64,000 nt of DNA from a virus (taxonomy: Duplodnaviria; Caudoviricetes): positions 1-64,000 of the IMG/VR virus record IMGVR_UViG_3300013383_000004; one strand, written 5' to 3'. Position numbers and translations under genes: made by a program. The notes under the pieces were generated by a model. That model searched no databases and had not been told where the DNA came from. It saw only the letters and a program-made list of their open reading frames with translations. Of this stretch, positions 2,813 to 50,494 are shown in pieces. Position 1 is the stretch's first letter. Each line of letters begins with the position of its first letter.

Positions 2813-3033
2813 TCTTTTATAATTTCAAAATCATCAATATTCCAATCTTTATATTTATCACATGGAAGATCTACTTGTGAGAGGACCTCATCTCTGAAGT
2901 CCTCCTCATTACTAATATCTACAGAAACTGTCTTACTCATTGTAAGAGATATAGTAACATCCATTGGAGTAGTTTTATCATTCCAAGGAGCACTATCTTC
3001 TTCTGATTGAGTTAAAATAGGTGTATTACTCAT
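2809..3033 (-). CDS. hypothetical protein
   Basis: 74 aa ORF with ATGA-type overlaps. Confidence 0.6.
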   Translation of the reverse strand: MSNTPILTQSEEDSAPWNDKTTPMDVTISLTMSKTVSVDISNEEDFRDEVLSQVDLPCDKYKDWNIDDFEIIKE

Positions 3034-3215
3034 ATTCTATTCTTCTTAACTACAGCATCTAATATTTCTAAAGCTTTTCTAAGAGTTTTCTTTTGGGCTA
3101 TTGTACAATTATTTAATTCCTCATACTCTTGCTCAAAAAGATATGATCTAAAGGAATTAGCCATATTTAAAGTTTCCTTGGCTTTTGTTTTAATATTTAC
3201 TCTAATTTCACTCAT
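3030..3215 (-). CDS. hypothetical protein
   Basis: 61 aa ORF with overlaps. Confidence 0.55.
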   Translation of the reverse strand: MSEIRVNIKTKAKETLNMANSFRSYLFEQEYEELNNCTIAQKKTLRKALEILDAVVKKNRI

Positions 3216-22197: not shown

Positions 22198-22723
22198 CTT
22201 CTTCTTTTTGTTTTACTATTTTTCTTAATAATTTTGTATACCTCTCACTCTCTGCATAATTTATTTTCTCCAAGAAAGTGTAATAGTCATTAGGATATTT
22301 ATAATTCTTTTGAATCCATTTTTTATATGCTATTATACTTTCTGTCCAATGATTAAACTTATAATAGCTGTTTGTTTTACTATTATATAATCCAAAAAGA
22401 TTATTATGTTTTATACATACTTTAGATTTAAAGTTTCCTGTTTCTAGTATAGCTTGTGCATAAACAATATTTTTATGTTTTATATCATAGTAAATCAGTG
22501 CTTCCTCTAAACCTTCTTCAGGAGATTGATAAAAGAATTTAGGTATAGTATTTATTGATGCAGTATCTATTTGTTTTTTATTGATAGTATCAATAATTTT
22601 TACAGTATCTTTTGTTTTTATAGTTTTTGGTACTGTTTTTTTAGTTTGTAGTAGTAATATTGCTATTACACTCCAAGGTATTATTGATATTACTGTGACT
22701 AATACTTTTATTTTATTTTTCAT
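22151..22723 (-). CDS. membrane-anchored glucosaminidase (GH73) peptidoglycan hydrolase
   Basis: N-terminal TM; AQAILETG, NNLFG, YA...Y. Confidence 0.85.
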   Translation of the reverse strand: MKNKIKVLVTVISIIPWSVIAILLLQTKKTVPKTIKTKDTVKIIDTINKKQIDTASINTIPKFFYQSPEEGLEEALIYYDIKHKNIVYAQAILETGNFKSKVCIKHNNLFGLYNSKTNSYYKFNHWTESIIAYKKWIQKNYKYPNDYYTFLEKINYAESERYTKLLRKIVKQKEEDDKRRYITRDSFSQR

Positions 22724-22914
22724 ATTGTAAATAGGTGTATATAAGTTCTTATTTTTTCTTGATTATGATACTTGTAATACCATAATACAATCTTATATTT
22801 CCTATCTTCAATTATTATATCTATAAATGGTTTAAAATACTTTTGTAAAGATAGGATTATCACGAATATTATAGAAATTATTATAAATATTTTCATATAG
22901 CATAATTTTAAGAC

Positions 22915-22954
22915 AAAAAAGAAAGCTAAGCAAGATATAACCTTGCAAAGCTTT
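22915..22954 (-). terminator. intrinsic terminator
   Basis: AAAGCT..GCAAG/CTTGC..AGCTTT stem with U-tract on the minus strand. Confidence 0.55.
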
Positions 22955-22964
22955 GCTTTGTTAA

Positions 22965-23363
22965 TTAATCATCAAGAATAAAAAAGTAAAAATCAGTAGC
23001 CCCAGCATCATGAGCTATAAGTTCACAATGCTTTTTAATTCTTGCTTCTTCTGACATATTACTCCAAATTGTAATAGGGTTGCCATTTCTTTTAGCTATT
23101 ATCTTATTATATTTTGGAGTTGTAGGTGTTTTAAGCATATAATCATATGCTTCTTGAGACATTTTTAATACCTGTTTTGCAGGTTTTGATTTTCTTGTCT
23201 CAAATGAAATAGTCTTAGTTTTATATCTTTTTTCTTCTTCATCAAAAGTTCTAAAACTAAGGTAGTTCATGTCATTTAATTCTGGTTTGTTTTCAGCCGC
23301 CTGCTGGCTTATCATAACACCTCCTGGAAGTGTCATGACAAGGCTTAATTTTGGTTCTGTCAT
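22965..23363 (-). CDS. hypothetical protein
   Basis: 132 aa ORF. Confidence 0.65.
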   Translation of the reverse strand: MTEPKLSLVMTLPGGVMISQQAAENKPELNDMNYLSFRTFDEEEKRYKTKTISFETRKSKPAKQVLKMSQEAYDYMLKTPTTPKYNKIIAKRNGNPITIWSNMSEEARIKKHCELIAHDAGATDFYFFILDD

Positions 23364-23366
23364 AAT

Positions 23367-23570
23367 TTATTTAATTAAATCTTCCCATAAATAGGCTTCA
23401 AATTCACGTTTGAGTTCCATTTCAGCTTGTTTTGCTTCATCCAAATATATTTTTAAGAAATATGAGCATTCATTAAAGTTTTCAATATTTCCATCAAACT
23501 CTAAATAAAGCCATTTTTCACAATATTTTATTGCCTCTTGTTGTTTTTTTGTTGCTTTTCTTGTCCTCAT
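23367..23570 (-). CDS. hypothetical protein
   Basis: 67 aa ORF. Confidence 0.55.
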   Translation of the reverse strand: MRTRKATKKQQEAIKYCEKWLYLEFDGNIENFNECSYFLKIYLDEAKQAEMELKREFEAYLWEDLIK

Positions 23571-23736
23571 AGTTAATTTGATAATAAAGATAGTAAATCT
23601 TCAGTAGTATATTCTACTTTATTTATATCTTTTGATTGATAATATAATTTAATAACCTCTGTAACTTCTTTATTTAATAAAGAGTTATTTATTGCAAAGT
23701 GATATAGTTCTTTTATAGTCATAACTATTAATATTG

Positions 23737-23810
23737 TACACCCAGTGAGACTCGAACTCACAACCCTCAGTTTAGAAGACTGATGCTCTATCCAGTTGAG
23801 CTATGGGTGT
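23737..23810 (-). tRNA. tRNA-Arg(UCU)
   Basis: ACACCCA/TGGGTGT acceptor, TCAGT-CTTCTAA-ACTGA anticodon arm, GTGAG-TTCGAGT-CTCAC T arm. Confidence 0.95.
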
Positions 23811-23817
23811 TTTATAA

Positions 23818-24120
23818 TTATATAGTTTCTATATTATAAAATTTAGCATACTTAAAATTAAACTTAAACCCTTCAGGAAATTCTTTAAAGAATTTATCGG
23901 CTTCTTCCTCATTGCAACACCAATCTAAAATAGCGTTTTTTATATCAATGGAGCCTTTAATTATCATATTATCTTCTCCTTTTTTTGCTTTAGAGATAAA
24001 GAAATTTTCATCTCTGGTAAAGTCTTTTAAATATAATTTTAAAGCATAATATTTCTTTAAAATGTAATCCATGTTTAAGTTTGTTATTGTAACTCCTAAG
24101 AAAATTGTTGATTCTTTCAT
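23818..24120 (-). CDS. hypothetical protein
   Basis: 100 aa ORF between tRNAs. Confidence 0.55.
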   Translation of the reverse strand: MKESTIFLGVTITNLNMDYILKKYYALKLYLKDFTRDENFFISKAKKGEDNMIIKGSIDIKNAILDWCCNEEEADKFFKEFPEGFKFNFKYAKFYNIETI

Positions 24121-24151
24121 CTTGTTTTATTTTTTAATCTTGTTAAACTTG

Positions 24152-24225
24152 TGGACCAATAGGGACTTGAACCCTAAACCTTCACATTATGAGTGTGCTG
24201 CTCTAACCATTTGAGCTATAGGTCC
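24152..24225 (-). tRNA. tRNA with CAU anticodon (Ile2 or Met)
   Basis: GGACCTA/TTGGTCC acceptor, loop CTCATAA, TAGGG-TTCAAGT-CCCTA. Confidence 0.9.
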
Positions 24226-24233
24226 TATGAGTA

Positions 24234-24455
24234 TTATTTAATATTAATTAAGTTGTTAAACCAATAATAACCACTTAATATAATAAATTCTCTTTTATTG
24301 ATAAAGGCTGTACAGATGGATATGAACAGAGTATTTATTGCTATTATACTTAAAAGAGTAAGAAAACTTACATTGTTTATACAAATAGATAGCATAAATA
24401 TTATAGCTGTAATCCATAAGAAGATACCTTTTATTGCTAATTTTATAGTTTTCAT
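24234..24455 (-). CDS. small membrane protein
   Basis: 73 aa, two hydrophobic segments. Confidence 0.55.
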   Translation of the reverse strand: MKTIKLAIKGIFLWITAIIFMLSICINNVSFLTLLSIIAINTLFISICTAFINKREFIILSGYYWFNNLINIK

Positions 24456-24603
24456 TGTTTTTTCTTGTTAAAATAATAAATAAATGTATGTAAACTAAGC
24501 CACAAAATGAATAAAATGATTAAAAAGTTTGCAGCTTCTATGAGATAATTTATGAGAAAATCTAACATTATAGTAAGTTAAAACAGTAAAAAGAGTTATA
24601 ATT

Positions 24604-24633
24604 AAAAGAGGGAGAGTTAAATACTCCCTCTTT
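24604..24633 (-). terminator. intrinsic terminator
   Basis: AAAGAGGGAG/CTCCCTCTTT stem just after 24641. Confidence 0.75.
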
Positions 24634-24640
24634 GTTATGC

Positions 24641-24949
24641 TTAAAGGCCGAGGGAAACGATTTCCCAACTATCCTGACCAGCCTTACATAGCTTATAGCT
24701 CCCACTGGCTAACTCAACTACCTGTAAATCATCCTTTTGTGCTGCAATTTGTTTAGGAGTCAGTTCTCCTAAATTACTGCTAAATCCTACAAAAGTAACA
24801 TCATCTCCTCTTTGAAAAACACAGCTCTTGAAAGCCTCTCCAGTCTCACTGTTCACAAAAGAGCCTACCTTCATGATACCATTGGCCTTAGCAAAGCTAA
24901 TAAGACTCCAAGAATCAACTATTCCATTATCCATGATAATAAAAGCCAT
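24641..24949 (-). CDS. small early protein, paralogue A1 (start may be ATG 24934)
   Basis: Strong similarity to 26579..26920 (GIV.SWSLISFA, GEAFKSC, FSSNLGELTP, LQVVEL, GSYKLCK). Confidence 0.85.
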   Translation of the reverse strand: MAFIIMDNGIVDSWSLISFAKANGIMKVGSFVNSETGEAFKSCVFQRGDDVTFVGFSSNLGELTPKQIAAQKDDLQVVELASGSYKLCKAGQDSWEIVSLGL

Positions 24950-25038
24950 TTCAGACTTGCTGTATAAACTAAGGTGTTATACTACCCAGCTGCAATATTA
25001 CATTAGATTACCAGAAACAGCTAACTTCCAAATAATCT
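24947..25038 (-). ncRNA. structured 5' leader (pseudoknot plus hairpin), copy 1
   Basis: Compensatory changes versus copy 2 in three helices. Confidence 0.65.
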
Positions 25039-25060
25039 TATTATTATCAAACTATAGGTG

Positions 25061-25077
25061 GAGTTCTGTTTAGATTA
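25061..25077 (-). promoter_or_regulatory. repeated motif TAATCTAAACAGAACTC (candidate early promoter)
   Basis: Identical copy at 25604-25620; variants at 27048 and 27823. Confidence 0.55.
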
Positions 25078-25316
25078 GAGTTAACACAATACAAGCTTAA
25101 TACTAAGCTATTGTGGTGATTAGATTAGTTAGGTTTAAGATACCGACACTTTTAATATAGTCTAACTTTTCTATTCTATGTAATAGTTCACATGATTTAA
25201 ACCCAATAGAGCAGCTCTAAGAAAGAAAAGAACCAAAAGAAAGAAACTATTATTTATTATTAATTTATATATTCCTAAAAGAAAGAAATATATAAAGAAA
25301 GAAAAGGGTTAAAAAT

Positions 25317-25341
25317 AATGCAGAGCACAAAGCCCTGCATT
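25317..25341 (-). terminator. intrinsic terminator
   Basis: AATGCAGAGC/GCCCTGCATT stem, U-rich tail on the minus strand. Confidence 0.65.
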
Positions 25342-25345
25342 ACTC

Positions 25346-25588
25346 TTATTTCCACAACAAGCTATCCAGTTTAGCTTTAGACTCATAGTAATCTTGAGGG
25401 TCAAAAGCATCAACCCAGTCATACTGACTATCTAAAGTATCAAGAAGTTCTTCAGTAGCTTTATTATAAGCATCATAAGCCTCAAGATACTTAACTGATT
25501 TAACTGTAGCAACACTATGCCCTGCTACAAAGCCTGCAATCATACCTAAGACAATAGATAAGATGCAAATAATAAGAGATTTTTTCAT
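25346..25588 (-). CDS. small membrane-anchored protein, paralogue B1
   Basis: N-terminal TM; KYLEAY...LLD.LDS.Y.W.DAFDPQDYY...KLDSL shared with 26285..26512. Confidence 0.85.
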   Translation of the reverse strand: MKKSLIICILSIVLGMIAGFVAGHSVATVKSVKYLEAYDAYNKATEELLDTLDSQYDWVDAFDPQDYYESKAKLDSLLWK

Positions 25589-25603
25589 ATCAAATGATAG
25601 GAA

Positions 25604-25620
25604 GAGTTCTGTTTAGATTA
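25604..25620 (-). promoter_or_regulatory. repeated motif TAATCTAAACAGAACTC
   Basis: Exact copy 15 nt upstream of the B1 start. Confidence 0.55.
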
Positions 25621-25795
25621 GACTTTATAAGTAATTAGATGATTGTTTAGACTATAGATTTTTAAGAGTAAATATTGTTTAGATTAAGGAGTACTTCTAA
25701 ATATTATTTACTCACTTTAGAATCAAAAGGAGTAACATCATCAAGGCTATCTATAATAAGTTTAATTATACCTCTCTTAATATTCCTTTTAATTA

Positions 25796-25829
25796 TTTGG
25801 TTATATCATTTTTTTTACTTACCTTTGCA
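25796..25829 (+). promoter_or_regulatory. Bacteroidota sigma70-type promoter driving an ORF-free region
   Basis: TTTGG...TACCTTTGCA. Confidence 0.75.
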
Positions 25830-26210
25830 CCAGTATACTTAGACTACATAAGTATGGTACAGATGGAATACTAGAATAAGACCTTCTGAAAGTCCCATTT
25901 AGCCTAGGTTTAGGAACTGCAGATATGAAATAATTATCAAACATAGCGGGGAGGTTGAGCCTAACTAAAAAGCTTAGTTATAAAGTCTATTTGCCCACCA
26001 AGTAGTTGTGAAAAGGTAGAGAGTAAAGAGGCCATAGGGGAATAAAAGTCAGCAATGACATAATAAACTCGCGGTAGACTGAAGATTCTAAGCAAGACTT
26101 ACCGAAAATTTTTATAATGTAAGGTAAGTGTGACAGGGGTGTTGCAATCGCTGGAGTATTTCTATGTCTCTTAATTAAAGAGTTAATAAAAGTTAATGCA
26201 ACACCTAAGA
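25830..26210 (+). ncRNA. candidate structured non-coding RNA
   Basis: Promoter upstream, terminator downstream, no ORF, several helices including a GCAA tetraloop. Confidence 0.55.
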
Positions 26211-26250
26211 AATAAAGAGTAACCTGTTAAATCAGTATGTCTTAAATATA

Positions 26251-26286
26251 AAAAAAATAGCAAGACGAATCTTGCTATTGTTTTTT
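26251..26286. terminator. bidirectional intrinsic terminator
   Basis: A-tract, AATAGCAAGA/TCTTGCTATT stem, T-tract. Confidence 0.75.
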
Positions 26287-26512
26287 ACATAAGGGAATCA
26301 AGTTTCTCATTATATATATAGTAATCTTGGGGGTCAAATGCGTCAGTCCAAGAGTACTTACTATCAAGAGAATCTAAGAGAGTTTCAGAGGCTTTATAAT
26401 AATTACCATAAGCCTCAAGGTATTTATTGGCTGTTTTAGTTGCATAGTTATTTCCAGCAACAAAACCTAATATAGAACCTAATATTAATGAAAGGATTAT
26501 TTTCATGTTCAT
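26285..26512 (-). CDS. small membrane-anchored protein, paralogue B2
   Basis: Paralogue of 25346..25588. Confidence 0.85.
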   Translation of the reverse strand: MNMKIILSLILGSILGFVAGNNYATKTANKYLEAYGNYYKASETLLDSLDSKYSWTDAFDPQDYYIYNEKLDSLM

Positions 26513-26542
26513 TTAGAATTTCAAGTTCATTTAGAATTTCAA
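26507..26542. repeat. 18-bp tandem duplication GTTCATTTAGAATTTCAA x2
   Basis: Exact direct repeat over the B2 translation start region. Confidence 0.85.
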
Positions 26543-26545
26543 GAT

Positions 26546-26572
26546 AAAAAGGGGAGCTCATGCTCCCCCTTT
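26546..26572 (-). terminator. intrinsic terminator
   Basis: GGGGAGC-TCAT-GCTCCCC with U-tract on the minus strand. Confidence 0.8.
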
Positions 26573-26578
26573 GTCATT

Positions 26579-26920
26579 TTAGAGTCCCAGGTCAACGTCT
26601 TCCCAGGAGCTATTGCCCTGCTTGCAGAGTTTATAGCTGCCCGTTTCAAGTTCCACGACCTGTAATTCGTCTTTAAGGTCAGCAATCTCTTGAGGAGTCA
26701 GCTCTCCCAGATTGCTACTGAAGGAGACAAGAGTCACCTCCCCTCCATCAACAAATGCACAGGACTTGAAAGCTTCCCCCGTTTGACTGTTTACAAAGGG
26801 GGCAACTTTCATTTGCCCATGCATTCTTGCAAAACTAATAAGACTCCAAGAATTGACAATCCCTACACTCTGTGTTTGAGGCTCTTGTGCTTGTTGTCTT
26901 TTAGCTTTAACGTTTCTCAT
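26579..26920 (-). CDS. small early protein, paralogue A2
   Basis: Paralogue of 24641..24949. Confidence 0.85.
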   Translation of the reverse strand: MRNVKAKRQQAQEPQTQSVGIVNSWSLISFARMHGQMKVAPFVNSQTGEAFKSCAFVDGGEVTLVSFSSNLGELTPQEIADLKDELQVVELETGSYKLCKQGNSSWEDVDLGL

Positions 26921-26930
26921 AATTTTTCCT

Positions 26931-27024
26931 CATTTCAGAGGCACTGCATGAATTAAGGCATCATGCTATCCTGCTGCATTACTATTATTTAGATAATTAA
27001 GAACAGCAAGCTCTTAAGTTATCT
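26931..27024 (-). ncRNA. structured 5' leader (pseudoknot plus hairpin), copy 2
   Basis: Covaries with copy 1. Confidence 0.65.
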
Positions 27025-27047
27025 TTTCAATTATCAATAAATAAGAA

Positions 27048-27063
27048 GAGTTCTGTTTGATTA
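27048..27063 (-). promoter_or_regulatory. motif variant TAATC-AAACAGAACTC
   Basis: 1-nt deletion variant, same spacing to the leader as at 25061. Confidence 0.5.
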
Positions 27064-27104
27064 AAAAGAAAGGGCAAGAAGACTGGTGTCTTCTCACTCT
27101 AAGC

Positions 27105-27782: not shown

Positions 27783-27822
27783 AATGTTTAATTTTTAAGT
27801 GTTAATGTTCAAAATTATGTAG

Positions 27823-27839
27823 GAGTCATATTTAGATTA
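27823..27839 (-). promoter_or_regulatory. motif variant TAATCTAAATATGACTC inside a 9-bp inverted repeat
   Basis: 14/17 match; TGTAGGAGT (27818-26) / ACTCCTACA (27842-50). Confidence 0.5.
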
Positions 27840-28012
27840 AAACTCCTACAAATGACCCATGGGGGAATATCCCCATTGTCAAAGGCTGGGTGGGGTGTTG
27901 GTTAGATTATCCCCCATCTTCACCTCTATTTCATTTTAAAAAAAATAAAATAAAAATTAAATTTATAATTATAATAATTTATTAATAGTATTATTACAAT
28001 TATATAATATAG

Positions 28013-28046
28013 TTTGGTAGTTACAATTATTGTTTGTAACTTTGCA
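28013..28046 (+). promoter_or_regulatory. Bacteroidota sigma70-type promoter starting the right arm
   Basis: TTTGG...TAACTTTGCA. Confidence 0.75.
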
Positions 28047-28090
28047 CCAGTGAATAAGAAATATACTATAAACATATAATCTCTGATTAT

Positions 28091-48500: not shown

Positions 48501-50494
48501 AGAGTGGTGCAGTAATGAATATAATATGAATCATGCTATTACTAATGATTTAATAAAATTAGGAGAGGATAGAACTTCTTCTAAGTGTACAGAAGATTCT
48601 TTGCAATATATACAAAAATTAATAGATTGTAAATTTACAATTAAACAACTTAGTATAGTCTATTGTATATCAAAGAATAGTATGAAAGATATTATAAGAA
48701 ATAAATCTTACACTCATTTACATTTGAATATAAAATATAATAATCCTACTGAAAAAAGATTTAACCATAAAATTATTGATAAAGATTTATATAATAAATT
48801 GAATAATTCTCTAAAGGATAATACCGTGCTAAATACACTTATTAAAGAAGGGTATATAAGTGTACAGTGTAACGCATAGTAATTGAAATAATATTACCAA
48901 GAGTTCCCAAGTTCCTTTTTAGTAAAAGGAATAAAATATATGCTGAACTATTGAGATAATAAATCAATAGAATTAAAGGATAAAAAGCCTTTAAGATAAC
49001 ATACTTGGAATATCTTAATTATGGCAAGTCAGGTGAAGTTATCAGAATGGGCGATGGTTTGTTTGCCCAGATGGAAGTAGCTAATACTATGTACTACAAT
49101 AACTTCTCGCTTAAGCTTCTTGAAGATGCTCTTTATGAGCTGTCAGCAGCTAAACTTAATATGAATGAAAGAATCTTTGTTATTAAGACTGGTGAAAGAG
49201 GAGCTATTCAGTTCCACAAGGCTATCCTTAATACAGTGTCTGGTTGGACTCAGTTTGTACTCAATGGGGATGCTCTTAAGGTAGTAGAGAAAACACAGAG
49301 TAATCTCCATGTTAACTCTCTTGCTGCTGGCTTCCAATTTGTAGAGTACAGAGCACCTAATGGTGTTAGAGTTAAGGTAGAAGTAGACTCATTTTATGAT
49401 GATCCAGTACAAAATAAGATACAGCACCCACTTGGGGGTCCTGCAAGCTCTTATAGATATGACATCATGGATATTGGTTCTATGGATCAACCTAATATCT
49501 TTAAGTGCCAAATTAAGGGTATGCCTGAAATCAGAGGCTATGAGAGTGGCTTAGCTGCCTAAGGTCACTTTAAACAAGGTTAATTGCTGGAAACTCTAAA
49601 ACTTAATACTTCAAACATTTAAATATGGAAGAACAATGGAAAGAAATCCCTTATACTAAAGGATACTATATATCAAACTTTGGTAGGGTGAAAATTGAGA
49701 AATGCCATAAATATCCAAATGGTGTTATCAAAGATAACAATTCTGGATTTTATGAGGATAAGGACGGTTACTTTAAATTATCATATAGGATGATTAATGG
49801 TAAAAGCACAGCTTCTTTTATACATAGATTAGTAGCTCAAGCTTTTATAGGCAATCCAGATAATAAGAAGATTGTTAATCATATAGATAGTAATAGAAAA
49901 AATAATAAAGTAACAAACTTAGAATGGTGTACTGATAAAGAAAATGTATATCATGCCTTTATTAAAGGTAATAGAAAACATTGTTTAGATGTTCCTAAAC
50001 AATCTAAATTAACACCTTATCAAATATCTCAAATAAATAATCTGAGACAATATTATTCTTTAAGAAAGATTGCAGATTTGTATAATATAAGTTATACTTC
50101 AATGAAGAATGTAGTAATTAGATTAAAAAGATTAAGTCATGACAATCAGCAGCCAAGCATCTATGGTGAAAGCTACCACATAGATGAAGGTTCAACGACT
50201 ATCCCTTATGGGAGTATACTACAAGCTAATGGTAGTGGAAATGCCTTGCCCACTAAATAGTGGTGAAGATATAGTCTAAACACTAGAGGAAACCTAGTGG
50301 AGTTAAACTCAATATAGAAGTTGCGTTCTATATAAAAATGTAATGTTAGGAATCCTTTCACTGGAGAGGTAAATATCCAGTATATGTCTCATGATGAGGA
50401 TAGTGCAACAATTCATAAAATGGCAACATTTGGTATTTGTGTATTAGACCCAACGAGAACAATGTCATTAATTCCTGCTATTTTACAGGGTTAA
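45573..50494 (+). CDS. major capsid protein, five exons (45573-45754, 46296-46668, 47853-48119, 49008-49551, 50346-50494), 504 aa spliced
   Basis: Exons sum to 1515 nt in one frame: FPV|KEFEDD, ELSR|KVGDIRF, NANG|EYLN, YESGF|RNPFTG...AILQG*; position after scaffold. Confidence 0.9.
45755..46295 (+). mobile_element. group I intron MCP-i1 (541 nt)
   Basis: P1 CCGU/GCGG, P AAATTGCTGGAA, Q AATCAGCAGC, R GTTCAACGACTA, S GTATAGTCT, terminal G. Confidence 0.9.
45852..46208 (+). CDS. intron-encoded basic protein with no recognisable nuclease motif
   Basis: 118 aa, HTH-like C-terminal half, ends in the intron Q element. Confidence 0.6.
   Translation: MGKYYTIKEYKEYFTTKNGKKAFITKNRVMLKRYKKLKYKKTNRLSVEDQEIEIQRGLRKILWKYYIEHKKIKTIKRETGFFYSYILQIVKGKRYPEQVNKYLLEIKKRLDNQQPNLL
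46669..47852 (+). mobile_element. group I intron MCP-i2 (1184 nt)
   Basis: P1 GCCGU/GCGGC, P10 GACCTT/AAGGTC, P AAATCGGTGAA, Q AATACCGAGC, P7 GAATA/TATTC. Confidence 0.9.
46822..47733 (+). CDS. GIY-YIG homing endonuclease with repeated HTH domains
   Basis: FIYKVTNKVNGKSYIGQT, RW..H, E...I, NGYN. Confidence 0.9.
   Translation: MEGFIYKVTNKVNGKSYIGQTRNTVEFRWRQHYKAKDNKYFHRAIQKYGKENFEIITLEKCEVGKLNDREIFYINKYDTFNNGYNLTKGGSTYTPNKKCLNGYIEVDDKYEEIKGMYLAGYSTAKISCLYNVDRHCISNILKSLGVKVRKSEKININAQEFEELVSKYQTGYSLKSLAKEYGCTDVGLKEYLQKRGIDIKKKFSILKDEPKQKELINDYLKGTLKLKEIQQKYHCEYRTFLKVLSNHGIKQRGCSGNFKLSDKDSLEIIKLFKEDKKVIELAKLYNVDKCTIYNLLKRYHVNY
48120..49007 (+). mobile_element. group I intron MCP-i3 (888 nt)
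   Basis: P1 CGGU/GCCG, P AAAACGGTGAA, Q AATACCGTGC, P7 GCATA/TATGC, terminal G 49007. Confidence 0.9.
48232..48879 (+). CDS. NUMOD4-HNH homing endonuclease
   Basis: EIWKDI.G...YQVSNLGRIR, HRLVA, VNHKDGNK.NN...NLEW. Confidence 0.9.
   Translation: MEIWKDIEGFRELYQVSNLGRIRRKDNHKVLKPLILTKGYKGVRLYYTKKDAVTKKIHRLVAKYFIGNPLNLPQVNHKDGNKNNNKAINLEWCSNEYNMNHAITNDLIKLGEDRTSSKCTEDSLQYIQKLIDCKFTIKQLSIVYCISKNSMKDIIRNKSYTHLHLNIKYNNPTEKRFNHKIIDKDLYNKLNNSLKDNTVLNTLIKEGYISVQCNA
49552..50345 (+). mobile_element. group I intron MCP-i4 (794 nt)
   Basis: P1 AGTGGCU/GGTCACT, P10 CCTAA/TTAGG, P AATTGCTGGAAA, Q AATCAGCAGC, R GTTCAACGACTA, S AAGATATAGTCT. Confidence 0.9.
49625..50260 (+). CDS. NUMOD4-HNH homing endonuclease
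   Basis: EQWKEI...YYISNFGRVK, HRLVA, VNHIDSNRKNN...NLEW. Confidence 0.9.
   Translation: MEEQWKEIPYTKGYYISNFGRVKIEKCHKYPNGVIKDNNSGFYEDKDGYFKLSYRMINGKSTASFIHRLVAQAFIGNPDNKKIVNHIDSNRKNNKVTNLEWCTDKENVYHAFIKGNRKHCLDVPKQSKLTPYQISQINNLRQYYSLRKIADLYNISYTSMKNVVIRLKRLSHDNQQPSIYGESYHIDEGSTTIPYGSILQANGSGNALPTK

Follow-up and report, generated by a model that had tools for sequence, protein, structure and literature searches.

A family of structured RNAs maintained by compensatory changes in crAss-like phages

INTRODUCTION

ROOL and GOLLD are large pseudoknotted RNAs of phages and prophages, which are often encoded beside tRNA islands and have no known protein partner. Their covarying kissing loops are the intermolecular contacts of RNA-only nanocages (PMC12286853). 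ROOL is approximately 580 nt long and GOLLD exceeds 800 nt. Group I introns also carry peripheral kissing loops, and their core (RF00028) is organised around a P3-P7 pseudoknot, with P8 placed between the P3' and P7' strands and two hairpin domains lying inside.

For crAss-like phages, the relevant parts of a preprint on phage phi14:2 report that the middle and late genes are transcribed by the host RNA polymerase from sigma-70-like promoters, and that a promoter motif lies ahead of a tRNA gene in 12 of 14 crAss-like genomes, including that of IAS virus (bioRxiv 10.1101/2020.03.07.982082). The same parts describe abundant long noncoding RNAs of phi14:2, which are ORF-free intergenic transcripts located among the early genes and present from the earliest time point, and assign to them no structure or family (bioRxiv 10.1101/2020.03.07.982082). 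The RNA reported here is likewise ORF-free and intergenic, but it is preceded by a host-type (middle/late) promoter; it is set apart from the phi14:2 transcripts by this description. Its carriers belong to the Crassvirales, the most abundant viruses of the human gut, and to our knowledge almost nothing is known about the noncoding RNAs of this order.

In this study, we analysed a window of 64,000 nt (positions 1 to 64,000 of the IMG/VR record IMGVR_UViG_3300013383_000004). The source genome is that of a crAss-like phage of 96.7 kb with direct terminal repeats, whose terminase is 88% identical to that of cr116_1 (Pamirivirus, Asinivirinae, Steigviridae). An original prediction, made from the window sequence, had proposed an independent large noncoding RNA gene of unknown class on the plus strand. 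This proposal was upheld by six further sequence types, by helices that are kept through compensation and by the lack of any Rfam match. Like ROOL and GOLLD, the crAss RNA is phage-encoded and, in the L083 type, IAS virus and the L093 type, tRNA-adjacent. It differs from them in its size of about 320 nt, in having no sequence or covariance-model similarity to them, and in being carried by Bacteroidota phages of the order Crassvirales. It adds a third and smaller case, in phages of the Bacteroidota, to the pattern of a large folded RNA beside phage tRNA genes.

RESULTS

A promoter-to-terminator unit devoid of reading frames

An ORF-free plus-strand unit (25796-26285) was found in a 696-bp gap (25589-26284) between two paralogous small minus-strand genes (Table 1). 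The full host-type promoter that had been described as pointing into this stretch is of the Bacteroidota type. The discriminator CACCAGT lies directly 3' of its -7 element, and TTTGCACCAGT at this place is identical to the site at 28041, as had been claimed. The twin promoter (28013-28051) heads a plus-strand operon, and the 11 nt past the promoter are identical in both copies. The -7 element of the RNA promoter ends 7 nt ahead of P1. At the other end, the proposed bidirectional terminator was confirmed, and no plus-strand gene follows for approximately 1.8 kb. The stretch is less AT-rich than its surroundings, again as described, with a G+C content of 0.35-0.385 versus 0.24-0.29 in the flanks, and its plus strand is rich in purines. 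The proposed length of approximately 380 nt has to be corrected: the conserved core is 323 nt (25835-26157) and the predicted transcript is about 450 nt.

That the stretch is ORF-free was also borne out. No credible ORF was found in any frame when it was read with table 11, TAG=Q or TGA=W. The longest open frames in the gap were at most 57 codons on the plus strand and at most 79 codons, stop to stop, on the minus strand, and TAG or TGA recoding changed nothing. Gene calling left the gap empty on each of more than 20 contigs, and no conserved reading frame was found across the RNA types. A protein-coding reading was therefore dropped.

The single-sequence fold of the stretch was weakly better than those of shuffled sequences (z = -2.1), and the opposite strand gave -2.5. 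Since this signal is weak on either strand, the evidence for structure comes from the homologues.

Table 1. Coordinates of the features of the RNA locus and of the helices of the RNA in the window
Feature	Position	Strand	Remarks
80-aa gene	25346-25588	-	left border of gap
Host promoter, Bacteroidota sigma-A type	25796-25827	+	-33 TTTG 25796-99, 20-nt spacer, -7 TAccTTTG 25820-27
P1 hairpin	25835-41 with 25849-55	+	loop GACTACA; 7/7 pairs compensatory across 6 sequence types
K loop-loop pseudoknot, 6 bp	GACTAC 25842-47 with GTAGTT 26002-26007	+	3' strand in P5b apical loop; covarying
P2 domain	GGT 25856-58 with GCC 25902-04; P2 25863-66 with 25895-98; P2a 25872-76 with 25884-88	+	RNAalifold (GGU/GCC, P2)
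P3	TAGGTTT 25905-11 with GAGCCTA 25957-63	+	two U.G pairs; compensatory CAGG/CCTG in L171/IAS
P3a hairpin	25917-20 with 25946-49	+	enclosed by P3; RNAalifold
P4 long-range helix	GCTTAG 25972-77 with CTAAGC 26088-93	+	covarying
P4b long-range helix	AGTCTA 25984-89 with 26075-80	+	RNAalifold
P5	25993-95 with 26030-32	+	variants GCUAU/AUAGC, GACCU/AGGUC, GUUUU/AAAAC, GGCCU/AGGCC
P5b	ACC 25997-99 with GGT 26015-17	+	apical loop holds K 3' strand
P6 hairpin GTCA-GCAA-TGAC	26048-26059	+	hairpin at same place in every type; 4/5 pairs compensatory
P7	ACTC GCG 26067-73 with CGC 26149-51 + GAGT 26154-57	+	TG bulge; CUC/GAG to CCC/GGG, GCG/CGC to GCC/GGC
P8 hairpin	ACTTACC 26097-103 with GGTAAGT 26123-29	+	four different stems, all fully paired; 5/7 pairs compensatory
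Window-specific 19-nt insertion	within 26130-26157	+	before P7 3' strand; holds GGTGTTGCA 26138-46; joining segment 2-11 nt in other types
3' extension	26158-26255	+	holds AGTTAATAAAAGTTAAT and TGCAACACC (26197-205)
Bidirectional intrinsic terminator	26256-26285	both	10-bp stem 26256-26279, T runs on both strands; common to convergent 75-aa gene
75-aa gene	26285-26512	-	right border of gap, convergent with RNA unit

No match to catalogued RNA classes

Rfam 15 gave no match to the RNA, either at gathering scores over the whole window or at E <= 10 when the copies of the window, L093 and L083 were searched. The models of ROOL (RF03087) and GOLLD (RF01998), which had been singled out for comparison, were equally silent in both searches. 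The RNase P model (RF00010) matched nothing in the whole phage genome at E <= 10, and it matched 11 of the 14 control genomes. A relation to RNase P had been considered for the CR-II/III-like strings in the P5 loop; it was discarded, as RF00010 is silent and the strings are not kept in subfamily B. ARAGORN and Rfam found the four known tRNAs of the window, and no tRNA or tmRNA in 25589-26284.

Diverged homologues form two subfamilies

Simple similarity searches failed to find relatives of the window RNA. No homologue was returned by blastn against 50,697 phage records, by an exact 21-mer scan of IMG/VR, or by nhmmer on the flanks of neighbouring-gene homologues (L002-L011, L079-L082, L148-L159). 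BLAST and single-sequence nhmmer in 33 related IMG/VR genomes gave chance matches of 14-34 nt at most, because the homologues are too diverged for BLAST. The first homologues were reached by another route. Contigs encoding 80-92% identical homologues of the 80-aa protein had large uncalled gaps, and two such gaps, read directly, contained this promoter and, downstream of it, an RNA that was diverged yet could still be recognised. The motifs GCCTAGGTTT, TTGAGCCTA, ATGCAATACC and GAAAnCATAA were shared with the window RNA, and the first two, which belong to the P3 domain, make up the family signature.

Motif scans of IMG/VR and a metagenome collection, followed by nhmmer filtering, yielded a family of seven sequence types in two subfamilies, which are 46-54% identical to each other. 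Subfamily A consists of the window type and the L093 type, the latter met three times on contigs of 136-152 kb. Subfamily B consists of L083 (ten loci), L163, L171, IAS virus and L077, all five in Asinivirinae crAss-like phages. The RefSeq genome of IAS virus contains the RNA gene, unannotated, at 2079-2400 of NC_049978. An HMM built from the L093 type alone had its sole match in the 64-kb window at 25834-26106 (E = 5.7e-16), and one made solely from subfamily B matched the L093 copy (E = 1.6e-10). The homology is therefore statistically independent of the window's own sequence.

The signature motif had 51 matches in 241 million metagenome records, 4 of which were real; among one genome per prokaryote species it had 34 matches, none real, and no host copy was found there. 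When 20 near-complete relatives were searched with a subfamily-B query, six carried a copy and 14 did not, and the closest relative (terminase 91% identical) is also without one. Given its absence from 14 of the 20 relatives, the RNA is dispensable.

Covariation supports a fold with two conserved pseudoknots

The fold consists of about 15 helices and two conserved pseudoknots, namely K, which joins the P1 loop to L5, and P4/P7 (Table 1). Structure-preserving variation among homologues, which the original prediction had put forward as its test, is widespread, and nearly every helix is kept by compensatory changes. For an alignment not fitted to the model, eight subfamily-B sequences were aligned with MAFFT and compared with the 15-helix model of 82 pairs. 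These pairs were 96.6% paired, versus 33-43% in controls whose partners were slid by 1-3 columns, and 24 pairs were altered on both sides, versus 0-5 after sliding. In 500 shuffles, the observed values for pairing, covariation score and count of compensatory pairs were never reached. Furthermore, unguided RNAalifold recovered P1, P2 with its GGU/GCC extension, P3, P3a, P4, P4b, P6 and P8; P4 and P4b were first revealed in this way. Since MAFFT misaligned the 5' domain between the subfamilies, all seven types were compared in a block-wise hand alignment, in which 44 of 67 pairs were compensatory; for P2, P2a and P3a, which were aligned by hand between subfamilies, these counts are biased in favour of the model.

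Three of the four hairpins named in the original prediction, ATACTTA/TAAGTAT (P1), GTCA-GCAA-TGAC (P6) and ACTTACC/GGTAAGT (P8), are supported by compensatory changes. The fourth, TAACTAA/TTAGTTA, is present in the window but has no counterpart in the homologues, and it competes with the covarying P4. Within subfamily B alone, P1 is 100% paired with five pairs altered on both sides. Four mutually exclusive versions of K were found, always at the same positions (GACUAC/GUAGUU, AUCUUA/UAAGAU, GCUUUA/UAAAGC and ACUUUA/UAAAGU). P2 and P2a differ in sequence between the subfamilies and keep their pairing in the hand alignment. The conserved U.G pairs of P3, with a change from U.G to C-G in L163, would be C.A mismatches on the opposite strand, which indicates that the RNA is read from the plus strand. 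P4 is complementary in all seven types with a different sequence in each, for example GCAUGAUUA/UAAUCAUGC in L093, GCAUUAUA/UAUAAUGC in L083, GCAUAUUA/UAAUAUGC in L077 and GCAUUACA/UGUAAUGC in L163. The window P5 retains three of five pairs, and the P5/P5b domain has a conserved purine-rich internal loop (26018-28). The P8 loop has GAAA at its start and an ATAA-like end. P7, with few changes, is the least supported helix; its 5' strand lies inside P4/P4b and its 3' strand past the P8 hairpin, so that P7 crosses P4 and forms a pseudoknot.

Two crossing long-range pairings had been proposed earlier, and these are not the conserved knots. The pairing GGTGTTGCA/TGCAACACC is a perfect 9-bp complement (26138-46 with 26197-205), located in the insertion and the 3' extension, which are absent from all homologues. 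Judged from the window sequence alone, this helix may be real. The other pairing, GGAATACT/AGTATTTC, overlaps and competes with the covarying P2/P2a. A comparable complement is present in L093, further downstream, and it is not resolvable in subfamily B, because the P2 and P7 strands are interchangeable there. Two further candidates were dropped during modelling. A GGUWCA-UGAGCC pairing showed variation at W without compensation, and an extra pseudoknot between J78 (the P7-to-P8 joining segment) and the 3' tail could be drawn in the window and L093, and its place was inconsistent in subfamily B.

In the 3' extension, AGTTAATAAAAGTTAAT is a direct repeat, AGTTAA-N4-AGTTAA (26176-26196), which is kept in the otherwise divergent tails of L083, L163, L171 and IAS virus. 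In subfamily B the repeat stands just 5' of the tRNA promoter, and no promoter follows the window repeat.

Conservation among strains

Fifteen strain contigs were retrieved from JGI, ENA and Logan assemblies via exact matches to two flanking proteins. All 15 had the same gene arrangement and no called gene in the gap, and the window RNA was identical in each. Across 22346-27065 (4,720 nt), 41 columns were polymorphic, with no substitution in 25383-26359; a uniform density would give approximately 6 substitutions in the 696-nt gap. The sole variation in the unit was the length of an A run at 26243-50, in the upstream arm of the terminator. The lack of substitutions is suggestive of constraint and no more than suggestive, as the contigs were chosen through neighbouring proteins and part of it may be due to ascertainment and linkage.

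Linkage to tRNA genes and signs of exchange

A host-type promoter stands at the same distance ahead of P1 in the L083, L163, L171/IAS and L077 types. In subfamily B, the divergent early genes are followed by a host-type promoter, the RNA, another host-type promoter and a tRNA array, with five tRNAs downstream of the RNA in L083 and 18 in IAS virus. By ARAGORN, all 18 tRNAs of IAS virus (L218, NC_049978.1, 2463-4861) share the plus strand with the RNA and its promoters; RefSeq places them on the minus strand, which is the wrong one. In the L093 type, a complete tRNA-Ile ends 50 nt upstream of the RNA, and a small lipoprotein-like ORF, an RNase H gene and a sigma-factor gene lie downstream. The idea of an intron-interrupted tRNA was rejected, since the L093 upstream tRNA is complete and the promoter abuts P1 elsewhere. 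Unlike in most carriers, no tRNA gene adjoins the window copy; this copy sits between duplicated early small genes and has its own terminator.

The relationships of the RNA do not track those of the phage terminase genes. The window RNA is 66% identical to the L093 type, 50% to the L083 type and 46% to that of IAS virus, and the corresponding terminase identities are 27%, 85% and 53.5%. The L083 and IAS virus RNAs are 83% identical. The L093-type carrier (approximately 140-180 kb), whose terminase (L220, G036:C1:104428-105969, in the 136-kb phage) has 13 in-frame TAG codons, is probably a TAG-recoded phage distantly related to crAss-like phages. From the mismatch between RNA and terminase identities and from the unusual location of the window copy, we infer that the RNA gene has been exchanged among co-occurring gut phages and is probably mobile.

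DISCUSSION

We consider it very probable that the unit is a free-standing gene whose product is a compactly folded, trans-acting noncoding RNA from a family not catalogued before; the structure of this RNA is conserved across phages with terminases 27-53% identical. Since its promoter is of the same type as those of the phage tRNA genes and the structural operon, the RNA would be transcribed by the host RNA polymerase in the middle or late phase. By analogy with ROOL and GOLLD, the folded RNA, either by itself or together with a partner from the host or the phage, would function in a process linked to phage tRNA supply or translation. Our best guess along this line is a folded RNA or RNA particle that may intervene late in infection, at the level of tRNAs or of translation. 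A more specific version, a new class tied to phage tRNA arrays, which would be either a ribozyme with a group-I-like core or an RNA-only particle assembled through K and acting on tRNAs or translation late, is put forward tentatively, as a possible but doubtful reading. K fits an intramolecular contact as well as an intermolecular one of the kind in the ROOL and GOLLD cages. We guess that K probably locks the fold within one molecule; that it joins copies into an oligomer is the less probable alternative. At about 320 nt, the compact RNA is a target for cryo-EM, chemical probing and partner pull-downs.

A derivation from a group I intron, as a stand-alone ribozyme or a domesticated relic, appears unlikely, although several features recall such introns. 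The covariation-backed strand order (P4-5', P5 domain, P6 domain, P7-5', P4-3', P8, P7-3') is that of the group I core, the loop-loop contact of the RNA resembles the peripheral kissing loops, and the conserved joining segments and the similar size, near 300 nt, would suit a catalytic core. Moreover, group I introns are also present in this phage, within the capsid gene (Intron_gpI, 50052-50299, E = 4e-8). However, the Intron_gpI model, searched at E <= 10, did not match the RNA of the window type, of L093 or of L083, and the capsid-gene intron was detected in the same mode. The segment equivalent to J8/7 is 2-19 nt and not conserved, and no P/Q/R/S-like blocks were seen. The RNA has its own promoter, which abuts P1 and leaves no 5' exon; flanking exons and a P1 5' splice site are absent, and no interrupted gene or tRNA surrounds the RNA.

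It is more improbable still that the element, rather than being an independent RNA, works in cis on the tRNA array downstream, as a leader or a processing platform that might, for instance, carry a signal for transcription or processing. The arrangement of the five subfamily-B types, with the RNA directly 5' of a same-strand tRNA array and no strong terminator between them, would suit such a role. Nevertheless, a second complete promoter separates the RNA from the tRNAs in these phages, the RNA lies downstream of the tRNA in L093, and the window RNA has its own strong terminator with no plus-strand gene to serve in the region beyond.

That the stretch has no function, being the remains of a gene or a spacer from the tandem duplication of the early module, with hairpins that arose by chance, can practically be dismissed: its place in a mosaic region, flanked by two paralogous small genes, its single-sequence fold only about 2 sd above shuffles on either strand and its absence from the closest relatives would agree with this, but the covariation refutes it, with pervasive compensatory change and a conserved promoter in phages of such distant terminases and no substitutions among the 15 strains.

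Additional observations on the early region and introns

The early region around the stand-alone RNA gene is a tandem duplication of a two-gene module, and the RNA gene lies between the duplicated small genes. The DNA of the duplicated 102-aa and 113-aa genes is approximately 69% identical (24621-24925 versus 26560-26853), and that of the 80-aa and 75-aa genes approximately 75% (25364-25493 versus 26297-26426). The 5' leaders of early genes are also repeated (24947-25000 and 26931-26984). Among the strains, a 6-nt in-frame indel at 26900-26905 distinguishes a 113-aa from a 111-aa form of the gene.

A motif of approximately 19 nt, GAGTTCTGTTTAGATTAGA on the plus strand, recurs at 25038-25082, 25581-25625, 27025-27069 and 27800-27844. 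These sites are directly upstream of four minus-strand early genes that have no host-type promoter, and the motif is a candidate promoter for the phage virion RNA polymerase.

As for the introns of the window, the Intron_gpI match in the split capsid-gene region scored 37.5 bits, which is sub-threshold but clear, and no Rfam match at E <= 1 was obtained for the other introns proposed in 45.3-50.7 kb.

In subfamily B, a conserved G+C-rich element, CCCTGGGG...CCCC followed by GGCTGGGTGGGGTGTTGGTTAGATTAT, separates the last early gene from the RNA promoter. It was located at 2975-3060 (minus strand) in L083, 3400-3470 (minus strand) in L077 and 1880-1935 in L218, and it may serve as a terminator or a leader, or be some other small structured element.
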